Shown piece by piece: positions 3,574-63,888 of a stretch of 64,000 nt of DNA. Position numbers and translations under genes: made by a program. This DNA comes from Bifidobacteriaceae bacterium (GTDB taxonomy: Bacteria > Actinomycetota > Actinomycetes > Actinomycetales > WQXJ01): positions 82 through 64,081 of the forward strand of contig JAITJZ010000062.1 of assembly GCA_031278655.1 (NCBI GenBank), read 5' to 3'. The notes beneath the pieces are model-generated. The model did no database searches and was not told the DNA's origin. It saw only the letters and a program-made list of their open reading frames with translations. The first letter of the stretch is position 1; every line of letters begins with the position of its first letter.

Positions 3574-4754
3574 GCGGGTGCTCCTTGTCGCGGTGGTTGC
3601 GGTGGTTGCGGTGGTTGCGGTGGTTGCGGTGGTTGGCGGTGCTCGGCCGCGATGGCGGGGTCGATGACGGCCTTGATTTCGACGCCCCGGCTCATGCGCT
3701 GGATCGAGTCGGTCGCGTCCGCCAGGCCGACCGCCGCGGAGAAGAGGTCGTCCCAGGCGAAGCGGTCGGCGAAGGCCGTGAAGAACTCGATCGCGTGGGC
3801 GTAGTCGGAGACGTCGCCGTTGAGCGAGCCGACCACGGTCAGCTCCTTGCCCATGACGGCGCTCAGCGGGAAAGGTTTGGCGTTCGCCCCGGTTGAGCCG
3901 ACGATGGCGTAGACGCCGCGTTGGGCGGCCATGCCGACGCCCTCTTGGCCCACGCTTGGGGCGCCGGCCAGGTCGATGACCAGGTCGGCGCCGCTGCCGC
4001 CGGTCAGGTCCAGGACCTCGGCGACGATCCCCTCGGAACCGACGCCGATGTCGACGGTGTGGTCGGCGCCGAAGTTGCGCGCCATCGTCAACCGTTCGGC
4101 CGGCGCGCCGATGGTGATGACTTTGCCCGCGCCCGCCACGCGGGCGACGGCCGTGGCGAAGATGCCCAGCGCCCCCGCCCCCTGGATGGCGACGGTCGAG
4201 GCCGGGCGGACGCCCCCGGCCCGGTCGAAGGCCCGCAGCACGGTCTTGGCCGCGCACCCGGCCATGGCCGCCCAAGTCGACGGCGTCGAATCGGGGATGA
4301 TCAGCTTTTGGGCCTGGGGGGTGACGTAGGCGTATTCGGACAGGCCGGCGGTCGCCCAGGGCGGGGTGTCACTGCGCTGGAGGAAGCCGTAGCCGCGGCT
4401 GGGGCACAGGACCGGCTGGCGCAGAATGGCGCAGGCGTGGCAGTGGCCGCAGACCGACTCCGACCAGCCGATGCGTTGCCCGGCCTGGAGCGGGCGGCCA
4501 AGCGCGTCGGCGGCGCCCTCCCCGGCGGCGATGACCTCTCCGACCATCTCGTGCCCCAGGACCATTGGCAGCATGCCCGGGAAGGACATCGCGCCTTGCC
4601 AGATCTCGATGTCTGTGCCGCAGAGGGTGGCCCGCAGGATCGCCACCAGCGCGGCGCCGGGCGCGACCGCGTCTGGCAGCGCCAACTCCTGCAACTGGAG
4701 CGGCTGGTTGTGCGCGACCAGCACGGCGGCCCGTGACGTTGTCGGCAGTCGCAT
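3570..4754 (-). CDS. zinc-dependent alcohol dehydrogenase (MDR family) with a C-terminal (QPP)5 tail
   Basis: Contains GHEMVGEV and the structural-zinc cluster CGHCHACAILRQPVLC. Start taken at MRLPTTS (ATG at 4754), with GAGGAG upstream. Confidence 0.85.
   Translation of the reverse strand: MRLPTTSRAAVLVAHNQPLQLQELALPDAVAPGAALVAILRATLCGTDIEIWQGAMSFPGMLPMVLGHEMVGEVIAAGEGAADALGRPLQAGQRIGWSESVCGHCHACAILRQPVLCPSRGYGFLQRSDTPPWATAGLSEYAYVTPQAQKLIIPDSTPSTWAAMAGCAAKTVLRAFDRAGGVRPASTVAIQGAGALGIFATAVARVAGAGKVITIGAPAERLTMARNFGADHTVDIGVGSEGIVAEVLDLTGGSGADLVIDLAGAPSVGQEGVGMAAQRGVYAIVGSTGANAKPFPLSAVMGKELTVVGSLNGDVSDYAHAIEFFTAFADRFAWDDLFSAAVGLADATDSIQRMSRGVEIKAVIDPAIAAEHRQPPQPPQPPQPPQPPRQGAPA
3592..3636. 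repeat. 9-bp tandem repeat ggtggttgc x5 (last copy ggtggttgg)
   Basis: Read directly from the sequence. It encodes QPPQPPQPPQPPQPP at the ADH C-terminus, about 20 nt from the ADH stop / AKR start overlap. Confidence 0.95.
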
Positions 4755-4846
4755 CGGCGTTTCTCCTCGGGATCGGTGGCCGTGGGGCGAATGGTGCACG
4801 GCAGACGTTAGTCTACAACAGTTGAATAAAAACCGAGGAGGACGAT

Positions 4847-6235
4847 GTGATGGAAGCCGACCTTGTGTTTCGCGGTGGAACGGTGCTGACCCTCGACGAG
4901 GCCGACACCACGGCTACGGCGCTCGCCGTCCTGGGCGGGCGGATCGTGGCCGTAGGGGGCGACGCGGCCGTGTCGGCGCACATCGGGCCGCGCACGCGCG
5001 TCGAGGACATCTCCGGCCGCGCGGTCTTGCCCGGCATCAATGACACGCACATGCACGCCGCCTGGGTCGGCGCCACCTGGCCCATGGTCTTCTTCAGCGA
5101 CGACCCGCCGGCCTTCGACCAGCGGTTGGTCTCGACCGAGGAGGAACGCCTCGCAGCCCTGCTCGGCGCCGCCGACGTCGCGGCCTCCTTCGGCATCACC
5201 AGTTACACCGAGCCCGGGATCGGCCCGGGCGAGGACCACGGCCCGACCGGCGCGATGGGCACCGCCACCCTGCGCCTGTACCAGCGCCTGGCGCGCGAGG
5301 GACGGCTCAAGCAGCGCGTCAACCTGTTGATGCTGTTCGGGCCGATCGACGGCCCGTCGAACTTGGCCGGACTGGTGGAAGGCCTGGCGGACTACGACAC
5401 GGCCACCCCCGATCCGCGCCGGTTCCGCGTCGCCGGGGTCAAGATTTTCGCCGATGGCGTGCCCATCACCCAGACGTCCTGGGTCCACTGCCACTACGCC
5501 GACGGCAGCCAGGGCCGGCTGACGGTCGAAGGCGCCGATGAAGCCGCGCGCGCCGAGGCGCTCCGGCGGATGGTGGTCGCCGCCCTGCGCGCCGGCCACC
5601 AGGTCGGCGTCCACGCGACCGGCGACAGGTCGATCGACACCATCCTCGATGCGGTCGCGGAGGCGGACGTCCGCGACCAAGATCTGCGGCCCTATGTCAT
5701 CCATGGCGACCTGGCGACGCCGGCGCAGCTTGACCGCATGGCGGAACTGGGCGTGGGCGTGACCTATCAGGCGGGCATCGGGACCGCGACCGAGCCGTGG
5801 GTGTCTGAGACGCTTGGCGCCGCGCGCGCGCGTGCCGGTTGGGCCTACGCAGAGGCCTGGCGGCGGGGTGTGCCCGCCTCGCTCAGCTCCGACGCGCCCT
5901 TCCTGTCCCTCGACTGGCGCCGTGAGGTCGCCAACGCCGACGCCTGGATGGGGCCGGCCGGCGACCAGCGAGCGCGGCTGACGCAACTGTTGCGCGCCTG
6001 GACGGCGATTCCCGCCTGGTTCGACCACGCCGAGAGCTGGAAAGGCGTCATCGGCGTTGGTCAGGCGGCCGACCTGGTGGTGCTGGACCGGGCGCCCACC
6101 TGCGCCGCCGAAATGCCGGCCGTCGAGGTCGATGCGACCTACCTGGACGGCCTGCCCACCTATCGGCGCGGTTTGGCGCCGCGCCGGGCGCGCCTGGCTA
6201 GACCAGAAGCTGACCGCCGTCGACCGGCAAGCTGA
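4847..6235 (+). CDS. metal-dependent amidohydrolase (amidohydrolase-3 / YtcJ-like)
   Basis: Opens MMEADLVFRGGTVLT and has the INDTHMHA HxH motif. GAGGAGG lies upstream. The start is GTG 4847 or ATG 4850. Confidence 0.8.
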   Translation: MMEADLVFRGGTVLTLDEADTTATALAVLGGRIVAVGGDAAVSAHIGPRTRVEDISGRAVLPGINDTHMHAAWVGATWPMVFFSDDPPAFDQRLVSTEEERLAALLGAADVAASFGITSYTEPGIGPGEDHGPTGAMGTATLRLYQRLAREGRLKQRVNLLMLFGPIDGPSNLAGLVEGLADYDTATPDPRRFRVAGVKIFADGVPITQTSWVHCHYADGSQGRLTVEGADEAARAEALRRMVVAALRAGHQVGVHATGDRSIDTILDAVAEADVRDQDLRPYVIHGDLATPAQLDRMAELGVGVTYQAGIGTATEPWVSETLGAARARAGWAYAEAWRRGVPASLSSDAPFLSLDWRREVANADAWMGPAGDQRARLTQLLRAWTAIPAWFDHAESWKGVIGVGQAADLVVLDRAPTCAAEMPAVEVDATYLDGLPTYRRGLAPRRARLARPEADRRRPAS

Positions 6236-7014: not shown

Positions 7015-7974
7015 ATGACAATGGCAGGAGCCGTGCCGCGGCGCCGGATCGCTCCCGGGGAGGACGTTCCGGTCCTCGCCCTCGGCTCATGGAACGTCTG
7101 GGACCGGACCACGCCCAAGGACGCCGTGGCGCTTCTCAGGCGCGCGGCCGAGGTCGGCGCGACCTTCTTTGACGTCGGCAATTACAATCTTGGCCCCCAC
7201 GCCGAGGGGTCGAGGACGGACATCCTCTTCGGCGAGTACAGCCGCCAGGCCGGCCTGGCCCGCGAGGATTACGTGCTCTGCGGCAAGCTCTGGCTTTGGG
7301 ATTACCCGCGCACGGGCTTCGCCGCCTGGATGGAGGAATCGCTGGCCCGGATCGGGGTCGCGGCCGCGGACTGCGTGGTGGTCGGCGACCATGTCGATCC
7401 GGTCGACATCCGCCGGGTCGTGGTCGACGTCAACCGCGAGATCGAGGCCGGCAGGTTCCGGTATTGGGGCGTCAACAACTGGCCCGTGTCCGAAGCGCGC
7501 GAGGCGATCGCCTTCGCCGCCGCCGAGGGGCTCATCCCCCCGACCTTCGCGCAGCTGAAGTACGGGCTGGCGCGCCGGTCGATGGCGGAGGGCCGGCCCT
7601 ACGGCGAGTTGTTCGACGCCGGACGGCTGACCCTGCAGGCGTCGGACGTCTTTGAGGGGGGCATCCTCGTCGGCAAGACCCAGCCCAGCCGCAAGATCGG
7701 CGCCGATGTCGGGGGCGTCCGCGAGCAGATCATCGCCAGTTGGCCGCGGGTCGAGTCGGCGGTGCGGGAGCTGGGGGTGACCCCGGCGCAGCTGGGCATC
7801 GCCTTTTGCCTGACCCATCCGGCGACGGCCAACGTGCTGGTCGGGGTGTCGAGCGTGGCGCAGCTCGAGGACGGCGTTGGCGCCCTGGGGCTGGTCGGCG
7901 CGCTTGGCGCCGCCCGCCTGCGCGAGGCGGCGGCCGAGTTGTGGATCGACCGCGAGGTCCCGCCCGGCGGTTGA
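7015..7974 (+). CDS. aldo/keto reductase (paralogue of 2614..3573)
   Basis: Opens MTMAGAVPRRRIAPGEDVPVLALGSWNVW and contains FDVGNYN, CGKLW, WGVNNW and FAQLKYGLARRS. AGGAGG lies 5 nt upstream of ATG 7015. Confidence 0.85.
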   Translation: MTMAGAVPRRRIAPGEDVPVLALGSWNVWDRTTPKDAVALLRRAAEVGATFFDVGNYNLGPHAEGSRTDILFGEYSRQAGLAREDYVLCGKLWLWDYPRTGFAAWMEESLARIGVAAADCVVVGDHVDPVDIRRVVVDVNREIEAGRFRYWGVNNWPVSEAREAIAFAAAEGLIPPTFAQLKYGLARRSMAEGRPYGELFDAGRLTLQASDVFEGGILVGKTQPSRKIGADVGGVREQIIASWPRVESAVRELGVTPAQLGIAFCLTHPATANVLVGVSSVAQLEDGVGALGLVGALGAARLREAAAELWIDREVPPGG

Positions 7975-7984: not shown

Positions 7985-8692
7985 TCAGGGTCGGGTCACG
8001 AAGGCGATCGCGGCCCGGGCGTATTGCGGCGACGCCAGGGCGCCCTCGTGGTCGCCGGGGACGCTGATGAAGTCGCCCTGGGGGAGTCCGGCGGCGATCT
8101 GGTCCGCGCCCCGCGCCATGGCGTCATCGGCGCCCGCGACCAGCAGGACGGGGACGGACGGCCGGTTCGCCGCGGCGGGGTCGAAGGGCGAGGCGCCGAC
8201 GCCTTCGATCAGCGCGACGGCCGATGCCGTGTGCAGGCCGGGGCCTTGGACGAGTTGGGCGAACATGCCGATGAGCGGATCCGGCGCGGCCGCGCCCGCG
8301 ATCACCGACTCGAGGGCGGCGATGTCGAGCCTGGCGAACGGGTCGAGGGGCGCCAGAGCGTCGAGCACGGCCCGGCGAACGACGCCGGCGCCCGCCAGCT
8401 CCCAGGCGATCCGCGCCCCCAGCGAGTGCGCGAAGACGTCGGCCTGGTCCTGCCCCGACTCGCGCACGGCTTCAGCCAGGTCGGCGACCAGTGAGGGAAG
8501 CGAGACTTCGCCCCTGGCGACCTGCGGGCCGCCCGGATGCCCCGGCAGCCCCACAACCAGGGCGCCGCGTCCGGCGGCGGCGAGGGCGGCCACCACGCCG
8601 GTGTCCAACCAGTTGAGCCGACCGCTGGCGCCGAGTCCATGGATGAGAAGAACGGGCCGGGGGCCCGGGTAAGCCTGCGTCGAGATTGTCAT
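7985..8692 (-). CDS. alpha/beta hydrolase
   Basis: Contains PVLLIHGLGASG and a FAHSLGA nucleophile elbow. TACCCT lies 6 nt upstream of the ATG. Confidence 0.75.
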   Translation of the reverse strand: MTISTQAYPGPRPVLLIHGLGASGRLNWLDTGVVAALAAAGRGALVVGLPGHPGGPQVARGEVSLPSLVADLAEAVRESGQDQADVFAHSLGARIAWELAGAGVVRRAVLDALAPLDPFARLDIAALESVIAGAAAPDPLIGMFAQLVQGPGLHTASAVALIEGVGASPFDPAAANRPSVPVLLVAGADDAMARGADQIAAGLPQGDFISVPGDHEGALASPQYARAAIAFVTRP

Positions 8693-8781
8693 AGTCTGAG
8701 GGTAGCGGACTTTTTTCCACGCATGTAGACTGCTGGCTGTTCACCCTCGCCGCCACGCGGCCCGAATGAAAGCAGCCTCCC

Positions 8782-9753
8782 ATGACAGCAGATCCCTCGC
8801 GCCTGATCGACATCGCGACCGGTTACATGGCTTCGAAGACGCTCTTCGGCGCCGCCCGGGTCGGCTTGTTCCAGGCGGTCGCCGATGGCGCGGACACGGT
8901 CGAAGCCGCCGCTGCGGCCATCGGCCGCAGCCAACGCCAGACCAGGATTCTGCTCGACGGCGTTCACGCGTCGGGCCTGATGACGCGCTCAAACGGCCGC
9001 TACGCCCTGGAGGCCGACGCCCGCGACTATCTGACCGGCGGCGACCTCGACCTCACCCCCTTCTTGAACTTCCTCGAGATCGGCAGTTTCCACTCCTTCG
9101 ACGATCACTGGCGGCGGACGGTCGACACCGACCAGGGCGGCGCCTTCGACGCCAGCGATGAAGCCTTCATGACCGCCTTCATGGCGGGAGTCATGCGCTA
9201 CAACGCCCTGCACGCCCACTGGTTCGCCCATGAGTTCCCGACCGAGGGCCGCACCCGCGTCCTCGACTTCGGCGGCTTCACCGCCGGCTGGTCGATCGAA
9301 CTGATGCGGCGCAACCCCGATCTGACGGTCACATTCGCCTACCCCGACTCGACCGCCCTGCGCGCGGACGTCGAGGCCGCCGGGCTGGGCGGGCGCGTGA
9401 CCTTCGCCGACATGCCGACCGAGACCGGCGTGCCCGGAGGCAATCACGACTTGGTCCTGGCCATCCACGTCATCCACCGCTTCTCCGACCCGGAGAACCG
9501 CGCCATCCTGGCGCACCTGCGGACCTCGGCCCGACCCGGCGCGAAGCTGGCGGTGTTCGACTTCTTCCACGACACGTCATCGGCCCAGCGCGACCTCGAC
9601 GCCCGGCACGCCGCCGAATACATCAACTTCGACGGCACCGTGGTCTGGCCGGAGGAGACGGTGGTCTCCTGGTTGGACGAGGCCGGCTGGTCCTTCGAGG
9701 GCTATGTGCCGGTGCCCGGCAGCCCCCGCGTGCTGGTCGCACGCGCGGTCTGA
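8782..9753 (+). CDS. SAM-dependent O-methyltransferase (class I, with N-terminal dimerisation/winged-helix region)
   Basis: The N-terminal IDIATGYMASKTLFGAARVGLF resembles plant/actinomycete OMT dimerisation domains. VLDFGGFTAGW is an SAM motif-I-like sequence. Confidence 0.7.
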   Translation: MTADPSRLIDIATGYMASKTLFGAARVGLFQAVADGADTVEAAAAAIGRSQRQTRILLDGVHASGLMTRSNGRYALEADARDYLTGGDLDLTPFLNFLEIGSFHSFDDHWRRTVDTDQGGAFDASDEAFMTAFMAGVMRYNALHAHWFAHEFPTEGRTRVLDFGGFTAGWSIELMRRNPDLTVTFAYPDSTALRADVEAAGLGGRVTFADMPTETGVPGGNHDLVLAIHVIHRFSDPENRAILAHLRTSARPGAKLAVFDFFHDTSSAQRDLDARHAAEYINFDGTVVWPEETVVSWLDEAGWSFEGYVPVPGSPRVLVARAV

Positions 9754-9868
9754 GAGCCGCGCGACCATTGGGCCTTGTCCGGGCGGGTAACCAGATCGAA
9801 ACCCAATCAGGCCCGCGCGATCCAAGACCGTAACTTCGCCGAAACTGCCCAGGGCCCCCGCCTCGGCT

Positions 9869-9895
9869 AGATTGTCTACGTCTGTAGAGCAATCT
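9869..9895. promoter_or_regulatory. 27-bp imperfect palindrome upstream of the ABC operon (candidate operator or 5' hairpin)
   Basis: agattgtctac-gtct-gtagaGcaatct: 11-bp arms with one bulged G and a 4-nt loop, ending 19 nt before ATG 9914. TAGATT (9868-9873) overlaps the left arm. Confidence 0.35.
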
Positions 9896-9913
9896 TGCAG
9901 GAGAGAAGGAGCC

Positions 9914-11473
9914 ATGAAAAGACTCACCAAGGCCGCCGCTGTTTGCTTCGCCGCGTCGGCCAGCCTCGCGTTCGGCGGGTGCTCCCCGTCCGACGAAGCC
10001 GCCACGCCAACCAATGACGACTCCGGCTACTCCGGACCAGACCACATCTCAATCACCCAATCGTTCTCCATGAACGGCTGGGAGATCGGCCAAAGCGGCT
10101 CCGCCTTCGCGGGGACCTTCTATTCGGCCGTCTACGACCCGCTCTACCTGATCGACGGCGCCAACGAGCCTTACGGGGTTGTCGCCCAGGACACCGAGAT
10201 CTCTGAAGACGGGTTGACTTACACCTTCAACGTGCGTCCCGGGGTTGTCTTCACCGATGGCACCGAGTTGGACGCCGCCGGCGTGGTGACCAACCTGGAA
10301 TACCTCGCCGCCGGCTTCGGCACCGCCAGCACCTACGCCAAAGTCGCTGGCTTCGCCGCGCTCGACGAGGACACCGTCGAGATGACCCTGTCGAGCCCCG
10401 ACCCGGTGCTCCTCTACAACATGGGACTCGGCGGCAGCTACTTGGCCTCGCCGACAGCCTTGGCAAGCCCGGACTACGCCGAGGCGACGGCCCCGTCCGG
10501 GTCGGGGCCCTACGTCTTCGACGAAGCCGCCTCCCTGGTGCCGACTGATTACGTCTTCACCCGCAACGAGAACCATTGGGAGGCCGACCGCTGGCCGTGG
10601 TCCTACCTCGAGATCCATGTGGTCCAAGACTTCACCGGCGCTGGCACGGCCCAAAACATGCTCACGGCCGGCGACACCAACGTCATGTACGCGTCGTGGA
10701 GGCCGGGCCTTGAAGACGACGCCGAAGCCAACGGCTGGGAGATGGTCGAGAACTACTCCGCCTGGGACGGCGTCATGATCGCCGACCGGGCGGGCGACGT
10801 CATCGAACCCCTGGCCGACCCGAAGGTGCGCCTCGCCCTCAACCTGGTCATGGACCGCGAGGCCCGCCTGGCTGGCGCCACCGTCGACCCCGGCACCTAC
10901 GTCACCAACCAGGTCTTCGCCAAAGTCGACCCGGACGTCGAAAGCTACCCCTACGACATCGAGCAGGCCAAAGCCCTGCTGGCGGAGGCCGGCTACGCGG
11001 ACGGCTTCAGCTTCGACGTCCCGGCCGGCGGCTACTTCGATGACACGATGGCGTTGATCGCCCAGGAGTGGGCCGAGGTCGGCGTCATCGCCAACATGGT
11101 CCAGCTAACCCCCGACGTCTACAACCAACAGGTGTTCGCGGGCAAGTGGCCGGTCTTCGCCGCCAAGCTGCAGCTCTACGGCAATCCGATGAAGACGGTC
11201 CAGGACTATTTCACGACCGGCGCCATGAACAACCCGTTCGACTCGTCAGCCAAGGACCCGGTCATGACCGACCTGATCGCGCAGTTCTACGAGGCGGGGG
11301 CCGACACCGACGCGATCTCCAAACAGATCAATGAGCACATCACGGCCGAGTCGTGGTTCGGGATCACCGCGCACACCCGCGACCTCTACGTCCTGGCCGA
11401 CGGCCTGACGGTGAAGCCGGTCCAAGGGCTGTACGTGCCGAATTTCCAGCAGTTCCTGCCAGACGCCAAGTGA
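9914..11473 (+). CDS. ABC transporter substrate-binding lipoprotein (family 5, peptide/nickel type)
   Basis: MKRLTKAAAVCFAASASLAFGGCSP is a lipoprotein signal with a lipobox Cys. The length and composition fit a family-5 SBP. GGAGAGAAGGAG lies upstream. Confidence 0.85.
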   Translation: MKRLTKAAAVCFAASASLAFGGCSPSDEAATPTNDDSGYSGPDHISITQSFSMNGWEIGQSGSAFAGTFYSAVYDPLYLIDGANEPYGVVAQDTEISEDGLTYTFNVRPGVVFTDGTELDAAGVVTNLEYLAAGFGTASTYAKVAGFAALDEDTVEMTLSSPDPVLLYNMGLGGSYLASPTALASPDYAEATAPSGSGPYVFDEAASLVPTDYVFTRNENHWEADRWPWSYLEIHVVQDFTGAGTAQNMLTAGDTNVMYASWRPGLEDDAEANGWEMVENYSAWDGVMIADRAGDVIEPLADPKVRLALNLVMDREARLAGATVDPGTYVTNQVFAKVDPDVESYPYDIEQAKALLAEAGYADGFSFDVPAGGYFDDTMALIAQEWAEVGVIANMVQLTPDVYNQQVFAGKWPVFAAKLQLYGNPMKTVQDYFTTGAMNNPFDSSAKDPVMTDLIAQFYEAGADTDAISKQINEHITAESWFGITAHTRDLYVLADGLTVKPVQGLYVPNFQQFLPDAK

Positions 11474-11540
11474 CGGGAGGCCAACCGGGTTCCGGCGGCC
11501 AAGCCGGAACCCGGGGCCAACCGAGGGAAGCGAGGCTCAG

Positions 11541-14311: not shown

Positions 14312-15139
14312 ATGGCCGACGCGCCGCTGTTAGAGGTCAACGACCTCAGCCTTGACTATGGCCGGGGCAAGTCGTTGTTCCGAGCCCTCGACCACGTGTC
14401 GCTGGAAATCCACCGGGGGGAGTGCCTCGGGCTGGTCGGGGAGTCTGGTTCGGGCAAGTCGACCCTCGGCAAGGCGATCCTCGGGCTGGCACAGTCGGTC
14501 GGGGGCGAGATCGTCTTCGACGGCCGTGAGATCCAAAGGCTGCCCCCGCCGATGCGTCGGCGCCTGGCGAAAGACCTGCAGGTGATTTTCCAGGACCCCT
14601 ACGGGTCGTTGTCGCCGGCCATGACGATCGGCCGGATTCTGGCCGAGCCGCTGCGGGTTGGCGGCATGCGTTATGAGCAGGCCAAGACCGCGGTCGGGGA
14701 AATGCTGGAACGGGTGAGCCTGCCCCGGGAGTGGATCGACCGCTATCCCTCGGAGTTCTCCGGCGGCCAGCGCCAACGCATCGCCATCGCCCGGGCGCTG
14801 ATCCGCCAGCCGCGGTTGATAGTCTGCGACGAGCCGGTCTCCGCGCTCGACGTCACCACCCAGTCCACGATCATTGACCTGCTGATCGAGCTGCAGCGGG
14901 AGACGGGCGTCGCCTACCTGTTCATCTCTCACGACCTGGCCGTGGTGCGCCGCATCTGTCATCGGGTGGCGGTGCTGTTCAAGGGCCAGATTGTGGAGCA
15001 GGGCGGGGGCGAGAAGATGACCACCAACCCTGACCACCCCTATTCGAAGCGCCTGCTGATGGCCTCGCCGGTGGCCGACCCGACCGAGCAGGCGCGCCGC
15101 CGCGAAGCCTGGCTGCAGGTGCGGACGGGACAGGCGTGA
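14312..15139 (+). CDS. ABC transporter ATP-binding protein (DppF-like)
   Basis: Has Walker A GESGSGKST, the signature FSGGQRQRIAIARAL, Walker B LIVCDEPVSALD and the H-loop FISHDL. Confidence 0.9.
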   Translation: MADAPLLEVNDLSLDYGRGKSLFRALDHVSLEIHRGECLGLVGESGSGKSTLGKAILGLAQSVGGEIVFDGREIQRLPPPMRRRLAKDLQVIFQDPYGSLSPAMTIGRILAEPLRVGGMRYEQAKTAVGEMLERVSLPREWIDRYPSEFSGGQRQRIAIARALIRQPRLIVCDEPVSALDVTTQSTIIDLLIELQRETGVAYLFISHDLAVVRRICHRVAVLFKGQIVEQGGGEKMTTNPDHPYSKRLLMASPVADPTEQARRREAWLQVRTGQA

Positions 15140-15171
15140 GCGGGACAGGCGTGAGCGGGACAGGCGTGAGA
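15127..15171. repeat. 15-bp tandem repeat gggacaggcgtgagc x3 spanning a stop/start junction
   Basis: Read directly from the sequence. Each copy carries GTGA. The first TGA (15137-15139) is the DppF stop, and GTGs at 15136, 15151 and 15166 are all in frame with the downstream ORF. Confidence 0.95.
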
Positions 15172-16011
15172 GGGGAGAGCGCCAGCGGGGCCGGGCCTTC
15201 GGCGCGGGAACGCAACCGCCGGATCGTCACCGACTTCTACACCCTCGCCTTCATCCGTCTGGAGCACGAGGCGGCCGCCGCCGCCCACCTGACCCGGGAT
15301 TACATCCAGCACAATCCGTTCGTCCCGGACGGCAGGGACGGCTTTGTCCAATTCTTCAAGGACTTCGACCTTGCCCGCGAGCCCGGTTACGAGCACAGGA
15401 TCCTGCGGACGGTCGCGGACGAGGACCTGGTCGCGGTCCACTGCCTGATGAAGAGTTCCCGCTCGCCTTTCGGCGTGGCCCTGGTCGACATCTTCCACGT
15501 CACTGCCGAGGGCCTGATCGACGAGCACTGGGACGTTTTCAAGGAGCTGGCCGATCCGGCGACCTTGCCCCACGCCAACGGTGAGATCGACGACATCGTG
15601 CGCGTTCGGCCCGGCGACGCCAACCTCAACCGTTGGGCGTTGGTCGACTTTTGGACCATGGCCTTTGTCCAAAAGCGGTACGCGGCGGCGGCGGCGAAGC
15701 ACTTCGGCGACCGGTACGTGCAGCACAATTCTTTCGTGGCCGATGCCGTCGAGGGCTTCACCTGCCATTTCGAGGGTTCCAGCGGCCATCGCCAGGAGAC
15801 GTATTGCCAGATTCCGCTGCGTTTCATCGTTGACGAGGAGTATGGGGCCGTGCATGAGTGGTTGCGTCCCGACGTCACCGACACCGCCGACCGCGGCGTG
15901 ATGATTGTGGACATCTTCCGCTTCGACCGGGGAAAGATCGTCGAGCACTGGGACGTGTTCACGCCCCGCTGGGCGCCGGCGGATTCCGCCAACGCTCGCG
16001 GGATGATCTGA
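15136..16011 (+). CDS. tandem SnoaL-like / NTF2-fold protein (two domains)
   Basis: The two halves align with each other: RIVTDFYTLAFIR..YIQHNPFVPDG..VDIFHVTAEGLIDEHWDVF versus RWALVDFWTMAFVQ..YVQHNSFVADA..VDIFRFDRGKIVEHWDVF. The true start among the three repeated GTGs is uncertain. Confidence 0.7.
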   Translation: MSGTGVSGTGVRGESASGAGPSARERNRRIVTDFYTLAFIRLEHEAAAAAHLTRDYIQHNPFVPDGRDGFVQFFKDFDLAREPGYEHRILRTVADEDLVAVHCLMKSSRSPFGVALVDIFHVTAEGLIDEHWDVFKELADPATLPHANGEIDDIVRVRPGDANLNRWALVDFWTMAFVQKRYAAAAAKHFGDRYVQHNSFVADAVEGFTCHFEGSSGHRQETYCQIPLRFIVDEEYGAVHEWLRPDVTDTADRGVMIVDIFRFDRGKIVEHWDVFTPRWAPADSANARGMI

Positions 16012-49515: not shown

Positions 49516-49591
49516 GGGGCGCCGGGTCCGGCCGCGCCGCGCCGGGGCGCCCGATGCCGCCGCCGGCCTTGGCGGCCGGGGCCCGGCTCGG

Positions 49592-49650
49592 CTTGGGGTC
49601 ACTTTTCGGCCGGCCTTGGGTCTTGCTGGTCGGCCGGCCTTGGGGTCACT
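49592..49650. repeat. about 24-bp unit x3 (cttgggg-tcact../..cggccggc) between the convergent mshC and PAC2 genes
   Basis: cttggggtcact occurs at 49592-49603 and 49639-49650. cggccggccttggg occurs at 49607 and 49631. The last copy contains the PAC2 stop (49646-49648). The two GGCCGGCC palindromes could pair as a bidirectional terminator. Confidence 0.75.
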
Positions 49651-50558: not shown

Positions 50559-51377
50559 ATGACCGGCGCCACGCCACCCGTCCCGACCAATCCGACGGCC
50601 CTGGCCGCCGCTCCGGCCGCCGCCGCGGCCCCGGCCGCGGCCCCGAAGCTGGCCGGCGTGCTCTGGGACCTCGACGGCACCGTGGTCGACTCCGAACCGG
50701 CCTGGTTCGCGGCCGAGACCGCCCTGGTCGAACGCCACGGCGGAGCCTGGTCGGGCGAACAAGCCATGCGCCTGATCGGCTCCGACCTCACCCACACGGC
50801 CCAGGTCTTGCAGCGCGCGGGCGTCCGGCTGGAGACGAAGGAACTGGTCAACGCGCTCCTTGAGATGGTCGCTGAGCAGGTGATGGCGACCCGGCCGTGG
50901 CGGCCGGGGGTGCTCGACGCGCTCGCCGAATGCCGGGCGGCGGGGCTCAGAAGCGCGCTGGTGTCGATGTCCTGGCGGCGGTTCACAACCGCCGTGGCCG
51001 GCCTGGCCCCGGGGATGTTCGAGGTCGTCGTCTCCGGCGACGACGTGCGTCGCGGCAAACCCGACCCTGAGGCCTATCTCCTTGGGGTCGCCAAGCTCGG
51101 CCTGTCCCGGGCCGAGTGCGTGGCCGTCGAGGATTCGCCCACGGGGGTGGCGTCCGCCCTGGCGGCGGGCCTGGCCACCGTCGCGGTGCCCAACCCGGTG
51201 ATGGGCGGCGCGCCCACCGAGCCGATCACGCCGGCGCCGGGGTTGACGATCCTCGGCTCGACCGCGCAGATCACGGTGGAACTGCTGCGTCGGGTTCATC
51301 TGGAAACTCAAGCGGCCGCCCGCCGAACAGCGGGCATCTGTCCTGAAACGAGCACCAGCCGCAGAGCGGCCCTTTGA
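50559..51377 (+). CDS. HAD-family hydrolase
   Basis: Has VLWDLDGTVVDSE (motif I), VSMS and GKPDPEAY. AGGAAG lies upstream. The C-terminal roughly 35 aa overlap the convergent gene and may be run-on. Confidence 0.8.
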   Translation: MTGATPPVPTNPTALAAAPAAAAAPAAAPKLAGVLWDLDGTVVDSEPAWFAAETALVERHGGAWSGEQAMRLIGSDLTHTAQVLQRAGVRLETKELVNALLEMVAEQVMATRPWRPGVLDALAECRAAGLRSALVSMSWRRFTTAVAGLAPGMFEVVVSGDDVRRGKPDPEAYLLGVAKLGLSRAECVAVEDSPTGVASALAAGLATVAVPNPVMGGAPTEPITPAPGLTILGSTAQITVELLRRVHLETQAAARRTAGICPETSTSRRAAL

Positions 51378-54929: not shown

Positions 54930-55816
54930 CGCGCGTCGAGACCCAGGACCGCCGCCAGCAGGCCCCGCGCCGGTCGTTGACCAGGCGATTGTGGCGGGCG
55001 GCGCCGCCGGGCCTGCGCCAGCCGCTTGGTCTGGTGGCCGCCCTGGTGGCGGCCGCCTGGTTGGTGATTTGCCTGATCGGCCCGGTCATCGCGCCGCATG
55101 ACCCGCTGGCGCAGGAGCTGCCTCGGTTCACCCCGCCCGGGGAGATCGCCTTCTTGGGCACGGACGAGCTGGGCCGGGATTTGCTGTCGCGGATTCTGGC
55201 CGGCGCCAGGGTGACGATCGGCCTGTCCCTGCTGCTGGTGTGCCTGTCGATGTTGATCGGCTCGGTGCTGGGGTTGTTGGCCGGGTTCTTCGGCCGTTGG
55301 GTGGATGAGACCATCATGCGTTTCACCGACCTGGTGCTGGCCTTTCCCACCGTCATCTTGGCGATGGTGACCGCCGCCGCCCTGGGCGCCTCGCTGTTCA
55401 ACGCGGTCTTGGCGGCGCTGGTGGTGTCGTGGCCGCCTTATGCCAGGGTGGTCCGGTCGATTGTGCTGGGCTTGCGCGGCAACGACTTCGTCTTCTCGGG
55501 GCGGTTGCTCGGTTTCTCGGCGGCGCGCTCCATCCGGGTCGACATCCTGCCCAACACCCTGGGCCCAACACTGGTTCTGGCCAGCCTGGACATCGGGACG
55601 GCGGCGCTGTTGCTGTCGGGGCTGTCCTTCTTGGGCCTGGGCGCCAAGCCGCCAACCCCGGAGTGGGGCTCGATGGTCTCCGCGGCGGTGTCGCATTTCG
55701 ACAAATGGTGGCTGGGCGTGTTCCCGGGGCTGGCCATTTTGACCGTGGTGATGAGTTTCAATTTCATCGGCGACGCCTTGCGCGACGCCCTCGACCCGGG
55801 GGTGGAGCGGCGATGA
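54926..55816 (+). CDS. ABC transporter permease (DppC-like)
   Basis: Contains FLGTDELGRDLLSRILAG. ATG 54926 overlaps the upstream stop (ATGA). Confidence 0.9.
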   Translation: MTRVETQDRRQQAPRRSLTRRLWRAAPPGLRQPLGLVAALVAAAWLVICLIGPVIAPHDPLAQELPRFTPPGEIAFLGTDELGRDLLSRILAGARVTIGLSLLLVCLSMLIGSVLGLLAGFFGRWVDETIMRFTDLVLAFPTVILAMVTAAALGASLFNAVLAALVVSWPPYARVVRSIVLGLRGNDFVFSGRLLGFSAARSIRVDILPNTLGPTLVLASLDIGTAALLLSGLSFLGLGAKPPTPEWGSMVSAAVSHFDKWWLGVFPGLAILTVVMSFNFIGDALRDALDPGVERR

Positions 55817-56694
55817 CGGCGCCAGCCTTGCGGATCGAGTCTCTCAGCCTGGGCATCCGGGGCGAGGACGGCCTGACGCCGATCCTCGACCAGGTGTCGC
55901 TGGACGTGGGCCGGGGCGAGGTTCAAGGCTTGGCCGGGGAGTCCGGCTCCGGCAAGACCATCACCGGCCTGACGGTGATCGGTTTGGAGCCCGCCAAGTC
56001 TGAGGTCACCGGGCACATTTGGATGGACGGCGACGATCTGTTGAAGATCACCGGGTCGGCTTTGAACGCCGTCAGGGGCAGCCGCGTCGGCATGGTCTTC
56101 CAGGACCCGGGGACTTCGCTGCACCCGCAGTTGAAGGTCGGCGCCCAGTTGACCGATCATGTCCGCTACCACCTGAAGGTGGGCAAGGGTGAGGCCCTGG
56201 ACCGGGCGGCGGCGGCCCTCGACCGGGTTGGTGTGGGCGGCGGCCGGGACACGCTGAGCCGTTATCCGCACGAGTTCTCCGGCGGCCAGCGCCAACGCAT
56301 CGCCATCGCCATCGCCCTGGCTTGCGACCCGGCCGTGCTGATCGCGGACGAGCCGACCACTGCCCTGGACGTGACGGTGCAGGCCGGGGTGCTGGCGCTG
56401 ATCCGCTCGCTGGTGGACTCGCTCGGCCTGGCGGTCTTGTTCATCACTCATGACCTGGGCGTCATGAGCGCGGTGGCTGACCGGGTGGCCATCATGCGGC
56501 ACGGCCGGATTGTGGAGAACGGCGACCGCCGCCAGGTCTTCACCGCCCCGGCCCACGCCTACACCCGCGAACTGCTGGCCTCGCTGCCGGGGGCGGCCGG
56601 CGGGTTGCGCTCGCGCGAGGATCTGGCGCGGATCGACCCCTTCGGCGCCGGCGAAGGCTCCGGCGAAGGCCAAGGCGAAAGGAGCGCGCCATGA
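55813..56694 (+). CDS. ABC transporter ATP-binding protein
   Basis: Contains GESGSGKT, FSGGQRQRIAIAIAL, LIADEPTTALD and FITHDL. ATGA couples it to the upstream gene. Confidence 0.9.
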   Translation: MTAPALRIESLSLGIRGEDGLTPILDQVSLDVGRGEVQGLAGESGSGKTITGLTVIGLEPAKSEVTGHIWMDGDDLLKITGSALNAVRGSRVGMVFQDPGTSLHPQLKVGAQLTDHVRYHLKVGKGEALDRAAAALDRVGVGGGRDTLSRYPHEFSGGQRQRIAIAIALACDPAVLIADEPTTALDVTVQAGVLALIRSLVDSLGLAVLFITHDLGVMSAVADRVAIMRHGRIVENGDRRQVFTAPAHAYTRELLASLPGAAGGLRSREDLARIDPFGAGEGSGEGQGERSAP

Positions 56695-57880: not shown

Positions 57881-59014
57881 ATGAGTTTCACGGTGGCGGT
57901 GGCGGGGGCGTCGGGCTACGCCGGGGGAGAGGTCCTGCGCCTGTTGGCGGCCCATCCGCTGGCCCGGGTCGGCGCGGTGACCGGCAACTCCAGCGCCGGT
58001 CAGGCGCTGGGGCGCCACCACCCGCACCTGGTCTGCCTGGCTGATCGCGTCATCGAGCCGACCGCGCCGGCGGCGCTGGCCGGGCACGACGTGATTGTCC
58101 TGGCCCTGCCGCACGGCAAGTCCGGAGCCGTCGCCGCCCAACTGGAGGCGGCCGGGACCGAGGCGGTCCTGGTCGACCTGGGCGCCGACCACCGGCTGAT
58201 CAGCCCGAAGGACTGGGCCGATTATTACGGCGGCGACCACCCCGGGACCTGGACCTACGGGATGCCGGAGCTGCTGACGGGATGGCCGCCGGTGAAACAG
58301 CGGGCGGCGCTGGCCGGGGCCAAGCGCATCGCCGTGCCGGGCTGCAACGTCACCGCCGTGACCCTGGCCCTGGCGCCGGGCGTGGCGGCGGGCTGGCTGA
58401 GCCCGCAAGACTTGGTGGCGGTGCTGGCCAACGGCGTCTCAGGGGCGGGCAAGGCCCTGAAGGCGCATTTGGCGGCGGCCGAAATCCTGGGCTCGGCCAG
58501 CCCTTACGCGGTTGGCGGCAGCCACCGCCACATCCCGGAGATCGTTCAGAACCTCGCCCCGCTGGCCAGCGCCAACGCGGGCGCCAGCGCGGGCGCGGAC
58601 GCGGGCGCCAGCGCAGAGGCGGGCCAAGGCGGCGCGGCAGCAGCGGCCATGCCCACCATCAGCTTCACCCCCACCCTGGTGCCGATGAGCCGAGGCATCC
58701 TGGCCACCGTCAGCGCCAAGCCGGGACCGCGCTTCGACCCGGAGGCGGCGCGCCAGCCATGGGAGCGGGCCTACGGCGACGAGCGTTTCGTCAGGCTCCT
58801 GCCCGCCGGCGTCTGGCCCTCGACCGCACACACCCTCGGCGCCAACAGCGCCCTCATCCAGGTCGCCTTCGACCGGCGGGCCGGCCGCGTGGTCGTCATC
58901 GCCGCCATCGACAACCTGGTCAAGGGCACGGCTGGCGCCGCCGTCCAATCGATTAATCTGGCTTTGGGACTGCCGGAGGAGACCGGCCTGGAATTGAATG
59001 GAGTCGCCCCATGA
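57881..59014 (+). CDS. argC: N-acetyl-gamma-glutamyl-phosphate reductase
   Basis: Contains VAVAGASGYAGGE, the active-site Cys in VPGCNVTA and GGSHRHIPEI. It carries an Ala/Gly-rich insertion. Confidence 0.92.
   Translation: MSFTVAVAGASGYAGGEVLRLLAAHPLARVGAVTGNSSAGQALGRHHPHLVCLADRVIEPTAPAALAGHDVIVLALPHGKSGAVAAQLEAAGTEAVLVDLGADHRLISPKDWADYYGGDHPGTWTYGMPELLTGWPPVKQRAALAGAKRIAVPGCNVTAVTLALAPGVAAGWLSPQDLVAVLANGVSGAGKALKAHLAAAEILGSASPYAVGGSHRHIPEIVQNLAPLASANAGASAGADAGASAEAGQGGAAAAAMPTISFTPTLVPMSRGILATVSAKPGPRFDPEAARQPWERAYGDERFVRLLPAGVWPSTAHTLGANSALIQVAFDRRAGRVVVIAAIDNLVKGTAGAAVQSINLALGLPEETGLELNGVAP
58577..58624. repeat. 12-bp repeat gcgggcgc[c/g][a/g][g/a]c x3 plus one degenerate copy inside argC
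   Basis: Read directly from the sequence. It encodes AGAS AGAD AGAS AEAG. Confidence 0.85.
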
Positions 59015-60246: not shown

Positions 60247-61148
60247 CGGGCGCGGCCCCGGGCCTCAGCCCGGACCAGAAGGCGGCGGTGCTGATCGAGG
60301 CGCTGCCGTGGTTGGAACGCTTCGGCGGCGCCATCGTGGTGGTCAAATACGGCGGCAACGCCATGATCGACGCCGACCTCAAGGCGGCCTTCGCCGAGGA
60401 CATGGTCTTCCTGCGCCGGGTTGGGCTCCGGCCCGTCGTGGTCCACGGCGGCGGCCCCCAGATCAGCGCCATGCTGCGCCGGCTGGGCGTCGAATCCGAG
60501 TTCCAGGGCGGCCTGCGCGTGACCACGCCGGAGACCATCGACGTTGTCCGCATGGTGCTGACCGGCCAGGTCAGCCGCGAATTGGTGGGCCTGATCAACA
60601 CCCACGGACCGTTCGCCGTCGGCATGTCCGGCGAGGACGCCGCCCTTTTTCAAGCCCGCCGCCGCCCGGCCAACGTTGGGGGCGTCGAGCTGGACCTCGG
60701 CCTGGTCGGAGACGTGGTCAAGGTCAACCCGGGCGCGGTCAGCGACCTGCTGGAGGCCGGGCGCATCCCCGTCATCTCCGGGATCGCGCCGGACATCGAG
60801 GACCCCGCCCAGGTCTTGAACATCAACGCCGATTCGGCGGCGGCCGCCCTGGCGGTGGCGCTGCGCGCGCGCAAACTGGTCATTTTGACGAATGTCGAGG
60901 GCCTTTACCGCGACTGGCCGGACCGCGCCTCGCTGGTGGACCGGATCGCCGTGGCCGAGCTGGAGGCCATGATGCCCCAGCTCGACGCCGGCATGCGGCC
61001 CAAGATGGAGGCCTGCCTGCGGGCGGTGCACGGCGGCGTGCCCCAGGCGCACGTCATCGACGGGCGCCAGCCGCACTCCCTGCTGACGGAGATTTTCACC
61101 GATCAGGGCGTCGGCACAATGGTCGTGGAGCGGTCCGATGCCGTCTAG
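60243..61148 (+). CDS. argB: acetylglutamate kinase
   Basis: Contains [19 protein letters not shown] and NINADSAA. Confidence 0.92.
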
Positions 61149-62433
61149 CCGGGCCGCGTTGGAGCGCTACGACCAGCGTTTGTGGCCGGTTTTCAAGCCT
61201 TCCTTGGTGCTGGCGGGCGGCAGCGGGGCGGTGGTCTGGGACGTCGACGGGCGCGAGTACTTGGACCTGTTGGGCGGGATCGCGGTCAACGCCATCGGCC
61301 ACGCCCATCCGGTCTGGGTCGAGGCGGTCTCCCGCCAAGCCGCCACCTTGGGACACGTCTCCAATCTCTACGCCTCGGCGCCGCAGATCGAACTGGCCGG
61401 GCGGCTGCTGGAGATCACCGGCGCCGGCCCCGGCGGCCGGGTCTTCTTCACCAACTCCGGCACGGAGGCCAATGAGGCGGCGCTGAAAGCGGTCTTGCGC
61501 CGTCCGGCGCCATCCGGGCGCGGTCACCGCCTGGCGGCGCTGGAGGGCTCTTTCCACGGCCGGACCCTGGGCGCGCTGGCGCTGACGGCGAAGGCGGCTT
61601 ACCGCGAGCCGTTCCGCGAGTTCACCGGCGAGGTCGACTTCTTGCCCTTCGGCGACCTGGGCGCGTTGGAGGCGGCCCTGCGCCGGGGCGGCCTCGACGC
61701 CCTGGTCATCGAGGTCATCCAGGGCGAGGCCGGGGCCAGGCCGCTGCCGCCTGGCTACCTGGCCGAGGCCCGGCGGCTGACCGCCCGCCACGGCGCCCTG
61801 CTCTGGATCGATGAGATCCAGACCGGGATTGGGCGCACCGGCGCCTGGACGGCCTACCTCAACCCCGACTTGGGCGGCCCGCTGACGGGCGCGCCCCGCC
61901 AAGTCAGAAGGGTGGCGCTGGCCGAATTGGCGCGTCAGGCGGACGTCGGGGCGCGGGCGCCCCGGGCCGGCGGCGCCCCTGACCTGGTGACGCTGGCGAA
62001 AGGACTGGGCGGGGGCTTCCCGATCGGCGCGGTGGTGGCGATGAACGGCGAGGTGGCCGCCCGGCTGGGGCCGGGCGACCACGGCACCACCTTTGGCGGC
62101 GGCCCGCTGGCGGCGGCGGCCGCCCTGGCCACGCTTCAGGTGATCGAGGACGAGGGCCTGATGGCGCGGGCCGCGGCCTTGGGCGCGGCCTGGCGCGAGG
62201 CCTTGGCGCGGGTCCCCGGCGTCCAATCAGCGCGCGGCGGCGGTTTGCTGATCGGCCTGGTGCTGGCGCGGGCGAACGCGCCCGCCGTGGTCCAAGCCGC
62301 CCAGGCGGCGGGTTTCCTGATCAACGCCACCGGCCCGGATGTGATCCGCCTGGCCCCGCCCCTGATCTTGACCACAGAACAGGCCGAGCGCTTCGCGGCG
62401 GCGCTCCCGAGAATCATCCAGGAGGCGGCGTGA
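61138..62433 (+). CDS. argD: acetylornithine aminotransferase with a 38-aa insertion just before the PLP-lysine
   Basis: Contains [26 protein letters not shown] and [14 protein letters not shown]. Confidence 0.9.
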
Positions 62434-63371
62434 GCGTCCGGCATTTCCTCAAAGACAGTTCGATCAGCCCGGCCGAACAGGCCGAGATCCTGCGCCTGGC
62501 GATCGAGGTCAAAGCCGACCGGTTGCGCCGCCAGCCGCTCAAGGGCCCCAGGGCGGTGGCGGTGCTGACCGACAAGCCGACCCTGAGGACGCAGTTGTCG
62601 TTCTGCGTCGGGATCGCGGAACTGGGCGGCTACCCGATGTTCGTGGACGGCAAGCTGGCCGGGGTGGGTGAGCGCGAGTCGATCGCGGACGTCGCCCGGG
62701 TGCTTGGCCGCCAGGTGGCGGCCATCGTCTGGCGGACCCACGGCCAGGACCGGATCGAGGAGATGGCGGCGCACGCCGGCGTGCCGGTGGTCAACGCCCT
62801 GACCGACGACTACCACCCCTGTCAGGTGCTGGCCGACCTGTTGACGGTGGCCGAGCAGCGCGGCGGCGTCGACCGCCTGGCGGGGGCCAAACTGGCCTAT
62901 TTCGGGGACGGCGCCAACAACATGGCCCAGTCTTATCTGCTCGGCGGGGCCATGGCCGGGATGGAAGTGGTCATCGCCACCCCGCCCGCCTACCGGCCGA
63001 AGGCCGAGATCCTGGCCGAGGCCGAGGCGATCGCGGACCGGACCGGCGCCAAGGTGAGCGTGACAGCGGATGTGGCGGCGGCGGCATCGGCGGCTGACGT
63101 GGTCGCCACCGACACCTGGGTGTCGATGGGCCAAGAGGCGGACGCGGCCGCCCGGCGCTCGCCGTTCGTCCCCTTCCGGGTCGATGACGCGCTCATGGCG
63201 CTGGCCGCGCCGGAGGCTGTCTTCATCCACTGCCTGCCGGCCTACCGGGGCAAGGAGATGACGGCATCGGTCATCGACGGGCCGCGCTCACGGGTCTGGG
63301 ACGAGGCCGAGAACCGGCTCCACGCCCAAAAAGCCCTGCTCATCTGGCTGCTGGCGGGCTCGGATGGCTGA
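62430..63371 (+). CDS. argF: ornithine carbamoyltransferase
   Basis: Contains [20 protein letters not shown] and the HCLPAYRG motif. Confidence 0.92.
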
Positions 63372-63888
63372 GGCGGAGGGCGGCGCGCCGGCCACCAAGA
63401 CCGCCCGCCAGGCGCTCATCCGGCAGTTGATCCGCTCGCAGGCGATCCGCTCGCAGGCGCAGTTGGCTGATCGGCTGGCCGAGGGCGGGCTGGAGGTCAC
63501 CCAGGCGACGCTCAGCCGCGACCTGGTGGAACTGCGGGCCGACAAGATCCGCCTGGCGGACGGCTCGCGCGTCTACGCCGTGGCGGCGGAGGGCGCCGAG
63601 GCCGCCTGGGAGGGCGACCTCAGCCGCGAGATGCTGGCCGCGCGCCTGCGCCGGCTGGTGGCGGAACTGCTGGTCAGCGCCGAGGGCAGCGCCAATATGG
63701 TGGTGCTGCGGACGCCGCCGGGGGCGGCTCACTTCTTGGCCTCGGCGATCGACCAGTCCTTTTTCCCCGGTGTCATGGGGACCATCGCGGGCGATGACAC
63801 GATTGTGCTGGTGACCCGCGAACCGAGCGGCGGCCCGGAGATCGCGGCCCGCTTCATCGAATTGGCGAACGAAGGAGAAGGAACATGA
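63364..63888 (+). CDS. argR: arginine repressor
   Basis: The N-terminal winged helix reads [26 protein letters not shown]. The C-terminal region [12 protein letters not shown] is the oligomerisation/arginine-binding domain. Confidence 0.9.
63429..63458. repeat. perfect 15-bp tandem duplication gatccgctcgcaggc x2 in the argR DNA-binding domain
   Basis: Read directly from the sequence. It encodes [10 protein letters not shown]. Confidence 0.95.

Follow-up and report, generated by a model that had tools for sequence, protein, structure and literature searches.

Near-perfect short tandem arrays at unusual density and dispersion in an uncultured, GC-rich Bifidobacteriaceae lineage

Bacterial variable-number tandem repeats (VNTRs) arise through slipped-strand events, at times in frame within coding sequence, and are defined by copy-number polymorphism; the classical coding examples concentrate in surface and virulence proteins. 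The contingency loci of host-adapted pathogens work by slippage of units of 1-8 nt, of lengths other than multiples of three, located in the open reading frames (ORFs) or promoters of surface or restriction-modification genes, which are thereby switched. In Mycobacterium tuberculosis, an actinobacterium without MutS and MutL, promoter repeats and mycobacterial interspersed repetitive unit (MIRU) VNTRs lie near promoters and gene junctions and have units of ~40-100 bp for which copy-number variation has been shown (PMC12817950), and an in-frame bias of structural variants has been reported for that species. Outside the bacteria, conserved enzymes of Plasmodium falciparum carry disordered, compositionally biased low-complexity insertions in surface loops, which are missing in relatives, recur at the same loops and are thought to be born by slippage in a biased genome. 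Here we analyse a 64-kb stretch (hereafter the window) of contig JAITJZ010000062.1 from the metagenome-assembled genome (MAG) of a Bifidobacteriaceae bacterium, in which short tandem arrays, many of them perfect, lie within conserved enzymes, in protein tails and on gene junctions. These arrays are of a known kind, namely slippage-derived repeats and low-complexity insertions; what is unusual is how dense and how dispersed they are in this single uncultured lineage.

Density and nature of the arrays

A preliminary description of this DNA, made by eye, had claimed at least 15 tandem loci at an unusual density. Tandem Repeats Finder (TRF) placed an array at all 15 and at several further loci in the window, the 78-bp period noted in pyrD being a 33-nt direct repeat of 88% identity. 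An exact-match scan for units of 4-60 bp with at least two copies and a length of at least 20 bp yielded 17 perfect arrays, as compared to 0.55-0.84 expected from second- and fourth-order Markov simulations and from triplet shuffles within 600-bp blocks. For arrays of at least 30 bp the disparity was wider still, with 11 observed against ~0.01 in the shuffled and simulated sequences.

The window was also compared with real DNA. As a matched neighbourhood we used 80 actinobacterial loci centred on lpd, of which 889 kb have a GC content of at least 0.65; the closest relatives were represented by a pooled sample of ten loci (160.6 kb). The GC-rich loci contain 4.9 perfect arrays per 64 kb, so that the window is 3.5-fold richer. 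Since every comparator carries the repeat-prone linker of the E2 (succinyl/acetyltransferase) gene, E2 was also left out as a control, upon which the contrast became 14.4 against 2.7 per 64 kb (5.3-fold); the 14 non-E2 perfect arrays of the window occupy 14 separate places. High-identity arrays (TRF score of at least 70 and at least 90% match) number 10 in the window and 1.7 per 64 kb in the comparators (6-fold), and at a TRF score of at least 50 the window is 1.8-fold richer in arrays and 1.2-fold in covered bases. Within 10 kb on either side of lpd the window has six high-identity arrays, as compared to none in 32, one in 11, two in four and three in one of 48 full-length comparators. The closest relatives are lower as well: per 64 kb, TRF arrays number 11.2, as compared to 30 in the window, and high-identity arrays 2.0, as compared to 10. 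Three comparators that appeared equally dense (L057, L040 and L048) were rejected as counterparts, their arrays being packed into one repetitive gene plus E2 rather than dispersed. When divided by a rough mask based on G+C at third codon positions (GC3), array density is raised in coding DNA (0.25 against 0.087 per kb) and no less so in non-coding DNA (0.43 against 0.097 per kb), the latter figure resting on three window arrays, of which two are possibly coding. The excess of tandem arrays is therefore real, about 3-6-fold, and specific to near-perfect arrays. The claimed abundance of perfect short duplications is borne out by the high-identity excess; two of the listed arrays, at 49584 and 58565, are imperfect, and total repeat content is ordinary.

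The window has a G+C content of 70.6% and encodes a Zn-dependent alcohol dehydrogenase (ADH), two oligopeptide ATP-binding cassette (ABC) systems, pepA-lpd-sucB (E2) with a divergent pyrD, an imuA'-imuB-dnaE2 cassette, rarD, a major facilitator superfamily (MFS) transporter, a tRNA-Leu and argCJBDFR. Its nearest relatives are other uncultured MAGs with ~75-80% protein identity; the best Lpd match in a genome scan is 76% identical, the closest ArgC ~76%, and the best match in a metagenome scan with PepA reached 54%. Arrays are hosted by ADH, an ABC ATPase, E2, Lpd, PepA, PyrD, ImuB, RarD, the MFS transporter, ArgC, ArgJ and ArgR, none of which is a surface, virulence or restriction-modification gene of the kind that defines contingency loci. 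No broken gene was seen in the window.

Single arrays are 20-137 bp long (the longest TRF row is 125 bp), and their contiguous copies follow one another head to tail without spacers. Units of equal length, compared at their best rotation and strand, are 0.64, 0.64 and 0.59 identical, as compared to 0.63, 0.63 and 0.59 for composition-matched shuffles. Unit sequences are thus unrelated between loci, which indicates that each array was made locally and that no dispersed repeat family is involved. A reading of the arrays as structured RNAs or terminators was rejected: the folds calculated for six arrays were unremarkable, with z from +1.26 to -1.17 apart from one at z = -2.87 that failed correction for multiple testing, and an Rfam scan of the window gave nothing at the arrays and only a tRNA. 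The plus strand of the arrays has a GC skew of 0.19, as compared to 0.034 for the whole window, whatever the strand of the gene, and the skew is positive in only 15 of 23 arrays. By inspection the rarD array (CGGCGGGTC x6) is the sole one whose unit fits the canonical G3-N6 quadruplex motif. A G-quadruplex or strand-biased mechanism was accordingly set aside as weak.

The preliminary description had further held that nearly all units are multiples of three. The count stands, at 15 of the 17 perfect arrays, and every clearly coding array of the window has such a unit; the two others are a non-coding 14-bp unit and an 8-bp unit of ambiguous coding status at the imuA'/imuB junction. The bias is not special, since 85-86% of comparator arrays share it. 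Nor does the claim that frame is kept even between genes carry far, for it concerns three or four arrays, and 7 of the 12 comparator arrays classed as non-coding by the GC3 mask likewise have multiple-of-three units. Outside arrays, exact matches are more frequent at multiple-of-three lags than at other lags, by factors of 3.1 for 6 bp, 4.5 for 8 bp and 7.3 for 10 bp, and base identity is 0.33 at multiple-of-three lags against 0.27 at the others, a surplus of microhomology that results from codon periodicity. If such matches seed misalignment, 60-80% of new duplications would be multiples of three ahead of selection. The bias is therefore part selection and part codon periodicity, and is ordinary for coding-dense GC-rich DNA. 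In sum, the arrays are unusual in number, not in kind.

Arrays in enzymes, tails and junctions

Five features lie within conserved enzymes or a regulator of the window:

19015-19478, minus strand: 12- and 18-bp arrays in series (12-bp arrays at 19015-19205), which encode the linker, rich in Ala, Pro and Glu, between the domains of the E2 succinyl/acetyltransferase (~18142-19761, minus)
23433-23584, plus strand: 33-nt direct repeat at 78-bp spacing, 88% identical, and 24-bp x2.0 (23537-23584), N-terminal region of PyrD
58565-58622, plus strand: imperfect 12/24-bp array, Ala/Gly/Ser-rich insertion of 22-25 aa in an ArgC loop
59507-59580, plus strand: 15/18-bp array, GGGAD repeats, 14-aa insertion in an ArgJ loop
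63429-63459, plus strand: perfect 15-bp x2.07 repeat in the N-terminal domain of ArgR

In a comparison of ten orthologue sets, the proteins of the window are consistently the longer ones and carry 11 unique internal insertions (147 aa in total), as compared to 0-4 (0-25 aa) in the relatives. For example, PyrD contains an in-frame insertion of ~50 aa built of the 78-bp and 24-bp duplications, which is missing in both closest relatives. The 22-25-aa insertion of ArgC is missing in its nearest homologues, and the 14-aa insertion of ArgJ in 11 of the 11 closest (66-81% identity), with other inserts at the same ArgJ loop in distant lineages. AlphaFold models of ArgC and ArgJ, both with a predicted template modelling score (pTM) of 0.87, place ArgC residues 238-252 and ArgJ residues 171-182 between confident elements at a predicted local distance difference test score (pLDDT) below 50, and both insertions are thereby predicted to be disordered loops. 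An alignment with relatives puts the E2 arrays between the lipoyl and catalytic domains, and the surplus length of the window E2, which has 539 aa where its two nearest relatives have 488 and 413 aa, is linker. The earlier suggestion that housekeeping enzymes carry insertions unknown in relatives was thus upheld for ArgC, ArgJ, PyrD and the extra E2 linker, as well as for a duplication between lpd and sucB described below. The exception is argR, where relatives hold an imperfect repeat of the same length, sharing 10 of 15 and 9 of 15 bases, that is perfect in the window, so that nothing was inserted. That the repeat became homogeneous at constant length suggests that units turn over in both directions, either by gain and then loss of a unit or by a conversion-like template switch. 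A separate observation concerns ArgD (61138-62433), which has a 21-aa insertion at 61885-61970 that is missing in three relatives. A tandem origin was rejected for it, as no direct or inverted repeat accounts for the insertion; on the evidence of its sequence, not every lineage-specific insertion in the window is a recognisable duplication.

Insertions of the same kind occur in relatives. ArgC exceeds 365 aa in 5 of the 12 closest homologues, as compared to 2 of the 107 others listed, and the extra residues of the long homologues fall in the same two loops as in the window. Indeed, these two loops hold differing inserts or arrays in the window and in P0004, P0011, P0018, L121 and L122. In L121 a 462-aa ArgC (8616-10004) has a 9-bp x7.1 array in loop 1, and in L122 a 428-aa ArgC (8718-10004) has two arrays, 21-bp x4.6 in loop 1 and 9-bp x5.2 (APP) in loop 2; the L122 gene that occupies the argR position also begins with an array, 18-bp x3.9. 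Because the units at these tolerant sites differ, the insertions represent independent events. Both argC genes are intact ORFs for which public gene calls give C-terminal fragments of 173 and 109 aa only, the gene caller having apparently been misled by the repeat-rich insertions in the loops. A more distant relative, L118 (Micrococcales MAG WQXJ01000011), shows a 176-bp x1.8 duplication (97% match) with a small extra ORF at the argC/argJ junction (11214-11532), and 47-bp and 31-bp arrays near toxin-antitoxin genes (6019-6181 and 7202-7373).

A further group of arrays lies in protein tails, in N-terminal extensions or elsewhere within genes:

3590-3641, minus strand: 9-bp x5.7 (97% match), (QPP)5 in the C-terminal tail of the Zn-dependent ADH (3570-4799), past the family profiles
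37081-37132, plus strand: perfect 9-bp x5.8, (RRV)6 in the C-terminal tail of RarD (36145-37191), past the family profile
38057-38097, minus strand: 9-bp x2.9 within an AI-2E family transporter gene (37841-38923, minus)
43186-43207, plus strand: perfect 9-bp x2.4, AAS repeats at residues 5-12 of an M20 peptidase (43174-44517)
44534-44609, minus strand: 12-bp x4 and perfect 15-bp x2.7, GPEQP/GPEP C-terminal tail of the MFS transporter (44514-45842, minus)
48782-48801, plus strand: perfect 9-bp x2.2 within a class-I (Cys-type) tRNA-synthetase-like gene (48253-49515)
50603-50645, plus strand: 12-bp x3.3, Ala/Pro N-terminal extension of a haloacid dehalogenase (HAD) hydrolase (50559-51377), whose domain starts at residue 33
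56644-56679, plus strand: 12-bp x2.2-2.5, C-terminal tail of an oligopeptide-type ABC ATPase (55429-56694)

C-terminal tails that extend past the end of the family profile thus carry arrays in ADH, RarD, the MFS transporter and an ABC ATPase, and N-terminal extensions do so in the HAD hydrolase, the M20 peptidase and ImuB. The remaining arrays are located on junctions and in spacers:

15126-15174, plus strand: 15-bp x3.3, triplicating the GTGA stop/start overlap of a DppF/OppF-like ABC ATPase gene (14312-15139) and a SnoaL-like gene (15136-16011)
19801-19831, minus strand: perfect 14-bp x2.2, last lpd codons and TGA stop copied into the lpd-sucB spacer
21699-21774, minus strand: 36-bp x2.1 (18-bp sub-period, 90% match), from the stop codon of the leucyl aminopeptidase gene pepA into the pepA-lpd spacer
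29504-29588, no strand assigned: 12-bp x6.7 (36-bp super-unit x2.4, 93% match), divergent intergenic region ~110 nt upstream of imuA'
30461-30565, plus strand: 15-bp x4.7 and 8-bp x2.75, filling the interval from the imuA' stop (30460) to the conserved ImuB N-terminus LAAIWIPDWP (in-frame TTG at 30565)
49584-49653, no strand assigned: imperfect 24-bp x3.0 (75% match), between the convergent genes 48253-49515 (plus) and 49646-50461 (PAC2 family, minus)

Three of these arrays (15126, 19801 and 21699) span a stop codon. In the first, three in-frame TGA codons and three candidate GTG starts for the SnoaL-like gene have been created, and the DppF-like protein is unaltered. In the second, the second copy is non-coding, and the lpd-sucB spacer of relatives is short and unduplicated. 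As for the third, a relative, L002, carries a perfect array with another unit (12-bp x3.5, 9445-9486) directly after its pepA stop, the position taken in the window by the unrelated 36-bp array, so that the pepA-lpd spacer is a recurrent array site. The neighbouring lpd ORF (19820-21439) has ~86 residues without a Pfam match before its FAD domain; tblastn similarity to L002 covers them, so that the N-terminal extension of Lpd may be real and shared with that relative.

The features at 29504-29588 and 30461-30565 lie, respectively, upstream of and within a complete imuA'-imuB-dnaE2 mutagenesis cassette (29696-35338). No convincing ORF crosses the 29504-29588 array, and sequences resembling an SOS box (TCGAAC...GTT) lie downstream of it at 29600-29700, directly upstream of imuA'. 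The stretch at 30461-30565 is either a spacer or a 36-aa N-terminal extension of ImuB read from the ATG at 30457; in a Cellulomonas relative ImuB starts just a few residues ahead of the conserved motif. Within the cassette imuA' (29696-30460) has no Pfam match, ImuB has its IMS domain, and the 1255-aa DnaE2 ORF has its PHP domain from residue 183, which places the true start probably near 32100.

Elsewhere in the window, the tRNA-Leu (anticodon GAG, 38997-39083) is the sole match to Rfam or by ARAGORN. Two neighbouring paralogous alpha/beta-hydrolase (Abhydrolase_3) genes occupy 641-2708 on the minus strand (641-1708 and 1617-2708); as listed their ORFs overlap by ~90 bp, so one start was probably miscalled.

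Origin of the arrays

The explanation that we consider probable is slipped-strand duplication whose input or turnover is raised in this lineage and whose products are sieved by selection. Replication slippage, by slipped-strand or microhomology-mediated misalignment of the nascent strand, would generate independent, local short tandem duplications at an input or turnover several-fold above that of the other sampled Actinobacteria, leaving many arrays still perfect. Purifying selection would then remove the events that break frame or structure. In proteins the survivors would be units of a multiple of three, placed in tails, in linkers between domains and in disordered loops at the surface. Where the protein is unaltered, as in spacers or in duplications that cross a stop or start codon, units of any length could persist. 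We favour raised input with moderate confidence because the excess is found in young arrays and extends to neutral sites (three arrays), because frame is kept in the clearly coding arrays and because argR has been homogenised. Slippage filtered by selection for frame had already been proposed in the preliminary description, and the local, unrelated units and the multiple-of-three units of the clearly coding arrays agree with it, with the qualification that microhomology contributes to the same bias. Its claim of recent origin likewise fits the many perfect arrays and the ArgC, ArgJ and PyrD insertions and extra E2 linker missing in the closest relatives.

Several considerations weigh against this explanation. 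The slippage mechanism, its continued expansion and contraction, and the preference for raised input over weaker selection are all inferred. The analysis covers 64 kb of the genome, and the comparators, mostly 21-kb pieces, represent two gene neighbourhoods (lpd and arg). Total TRF content, at 25.7 bp per kb in the window and 20.7 in the comparators, ranks 19th of 84 and is ordinary, the enrichment of 3-6-fold falls short of orders of magnitude, and the excess in non-coding DNA comes from the three arrays mentioned above, two of them possibly coding. Moreover, since similar insertions occur in the relatives, drift under a selective regime common to the clade could yield such accumulation without a raised mutation rate. 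In that case slippage would proceed at an ordinary rate under weak purifying selection, and slightly deleterious in-frame insertions would drift to fixation in a lineage of small population size, possibly host-associated. The clade-wide habit of insertion seen in ArgC length, the long ArgC proteins of L121 and L122 with inserts in the same loops, the systematic extra length of the window proteins, and the ArgD insertion, which suggests by its absence of repeat structure that older insertions are kept too, are all in keeping with drift. It fits less well with an excess that is 6-fold in perfect young arrays and 1.2-fold in total repeat content, with densities that are raised also in spacers and stop-spanning duplications, beyond the reach of protein selection, or with the 3-5 times fewer arrays of the closest relatives. 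In addition, the clearly coding arrays are all in frame and the genes of the window unbroken, from which selection would appear to be still effective. We therefore regard drift as possible but rather unlikely.

What might raise the input is a further matter. MutS and MutL are missing from almost all Actinobacteria (PMC5290159), and in M. smegmatis the NucS pathway leaves indels uncorrected, short indels being suppressed instead by the PHP exonuclease of the polymerase (PMC7015689, PMC8228993). The link to mismatch repair or NucS suggested in the preliminary description is accordingly weak, and we rejected it as the cause of the excess: NucS is inactive on indels, and the background without MutS and MutL is common to comparators with far fewer arrays. 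Loops of 8-36 nt are out of the reach of MutS anyway, and such repeats owe their stability in E. coli to single-strand exonucleases. A tentative and more far-reaching idea, which we hold doubtful, is that the lineage, and to a lesser degree a clade of uncultured GC-rich 'Bifidobacteriaceae' MAGs, has a heritable mutator state for tandem duplication. A change in the replisome, in a single-strand exonuclease or in flap processing would raise slippage of 8-36 bp genome-wide and seed loops, tails and junctions, making this a bacterial counterpart of the low-complexity expansion of Plasmodium. The termite-associated Bifidobacteriaceae treated in one published paper are low-GC endosymbionts, unlike this 70% GC lineage.

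The other explanations carry far less weight. Copy number might switch or tune expression, as in contingency loci or promoter tandem repeats, and the 12-bp x6.7 array ~110 nt upstream of imuA' near SOS-box-like sequences, the arrays at translationally coupled junctions and the documented variation of promoter tandem-repeat copy number in M. tuberculosis (PMC12817950) could be read in this way. Most arrays, however, are in frame within housekeeping proteins or their tails, where a change in copy number cannot switch a gene off, and the units have no common motif, no special RNA structure (one of six folds with z = -2.87) and no conservation in relatives, all of which makes a function of this type improbable. 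It is still less probable that the arrays or their copy numbers were made by the metagenome assembler or by consensus polishing. The window is indeed a metagenome-assembled contig, and an identical ArgC (MDR2373343.1) is found only as 'MAG: Bifidobacteriaceae bacterium'. Yet most arrays, at 20-137 bp, could be spanned by one short read, long-read errors are homopolymer indels rather than perfect 9-36-bp duplications, coding arrays respect frame and tolerated positions, and independently assembled relatives from other samples have the same kind of array in the same loops. Finally, the occurrence of many loci in a short stretch and the resemblance by eye of several G-rich units (GGCGG cores) could point to an interspersed or mobile repeat family spread over many loci, similar to MIRU, repetitive extragenic palindromic (REP) or clustered regularly interspaced short palindromic repeat (CRISPR) elements. 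To such a family we assign next to no probability, given unit identities equal to those of composition-matched shuffles, head-to-tail copies without spacers and an Rfam scan showing one tRNA only.

Should the raised rate prove real, the lineage would offer a natural experiment on what restrains slippage in the absence of MutS and MutL, with units too long for any mismatch repair, and also on the birth of disordered loops and tails in conserved enzymes, as its insertions are of several ages and recur at the same loops. An excess that is due to drift, or that is local to this window, would by contrast be an ordinary finding. The arrays are in addition ready-made strain markers for metagenomes. 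They also mislead gene callers, as in the argC genes of two relatives, and blur the assignment of start codons at duplicated stop/start junctions.

Comparison with known systems

The arrays of the window are most readily likened to bacterial VNTRs, with which they share short head-to-tail units, high identity between copies, multiple-of-three units within genes, arrays in spacers and units specific to each locus. They are known from one sequence, whereas VNTRs are defined by polymorphism, and they are spread over cytoplasmic housekeeping enzymes and transporters rather than surface or virulence proteins, at ~5 times the perfect-array density of other Actinobacteria. With the promoter repeats and MIRU-VNTRs of M. 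tuberculosis they have in common an actinobacterial background without MutS and MutL and intergenic repeats near promoters and junctions; their units of 8-36 bp are shorter and mostly coding. Contingency loci employ the same slippage mechanism but switch genes with short units that break the frame, in contrast to the multiple-of-three coding units in the housekeeping genes of the window.

Two further likenesses concern the encoded proteins. The arrays at 19015-19478 encode an Ala/Pro linker typical of the E2 subunits of 2-oxo-acid dehydrogenases, a place where comparator genomes have arrays too, but no more than 3 of the 17 perfect arrays belong to this linker (of all 23 arrays, four or five), and the window E2 is longer than those of both closest relatives. 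The low-complexity insertions of P. falciparum resemble those described here in their biased composition, their placement in disordered surface loops of conserved enzymes, their recurrence at the same loops and their absence from relatives. The window, by contrast, belongs to a bacterium with a GC-rich bias, so that its insertions of 5-50 aa are rich in Ala, Gly, Pro and Arg rather than Asn and Lys, and many of them are still perfect repeats at the level of DNA.

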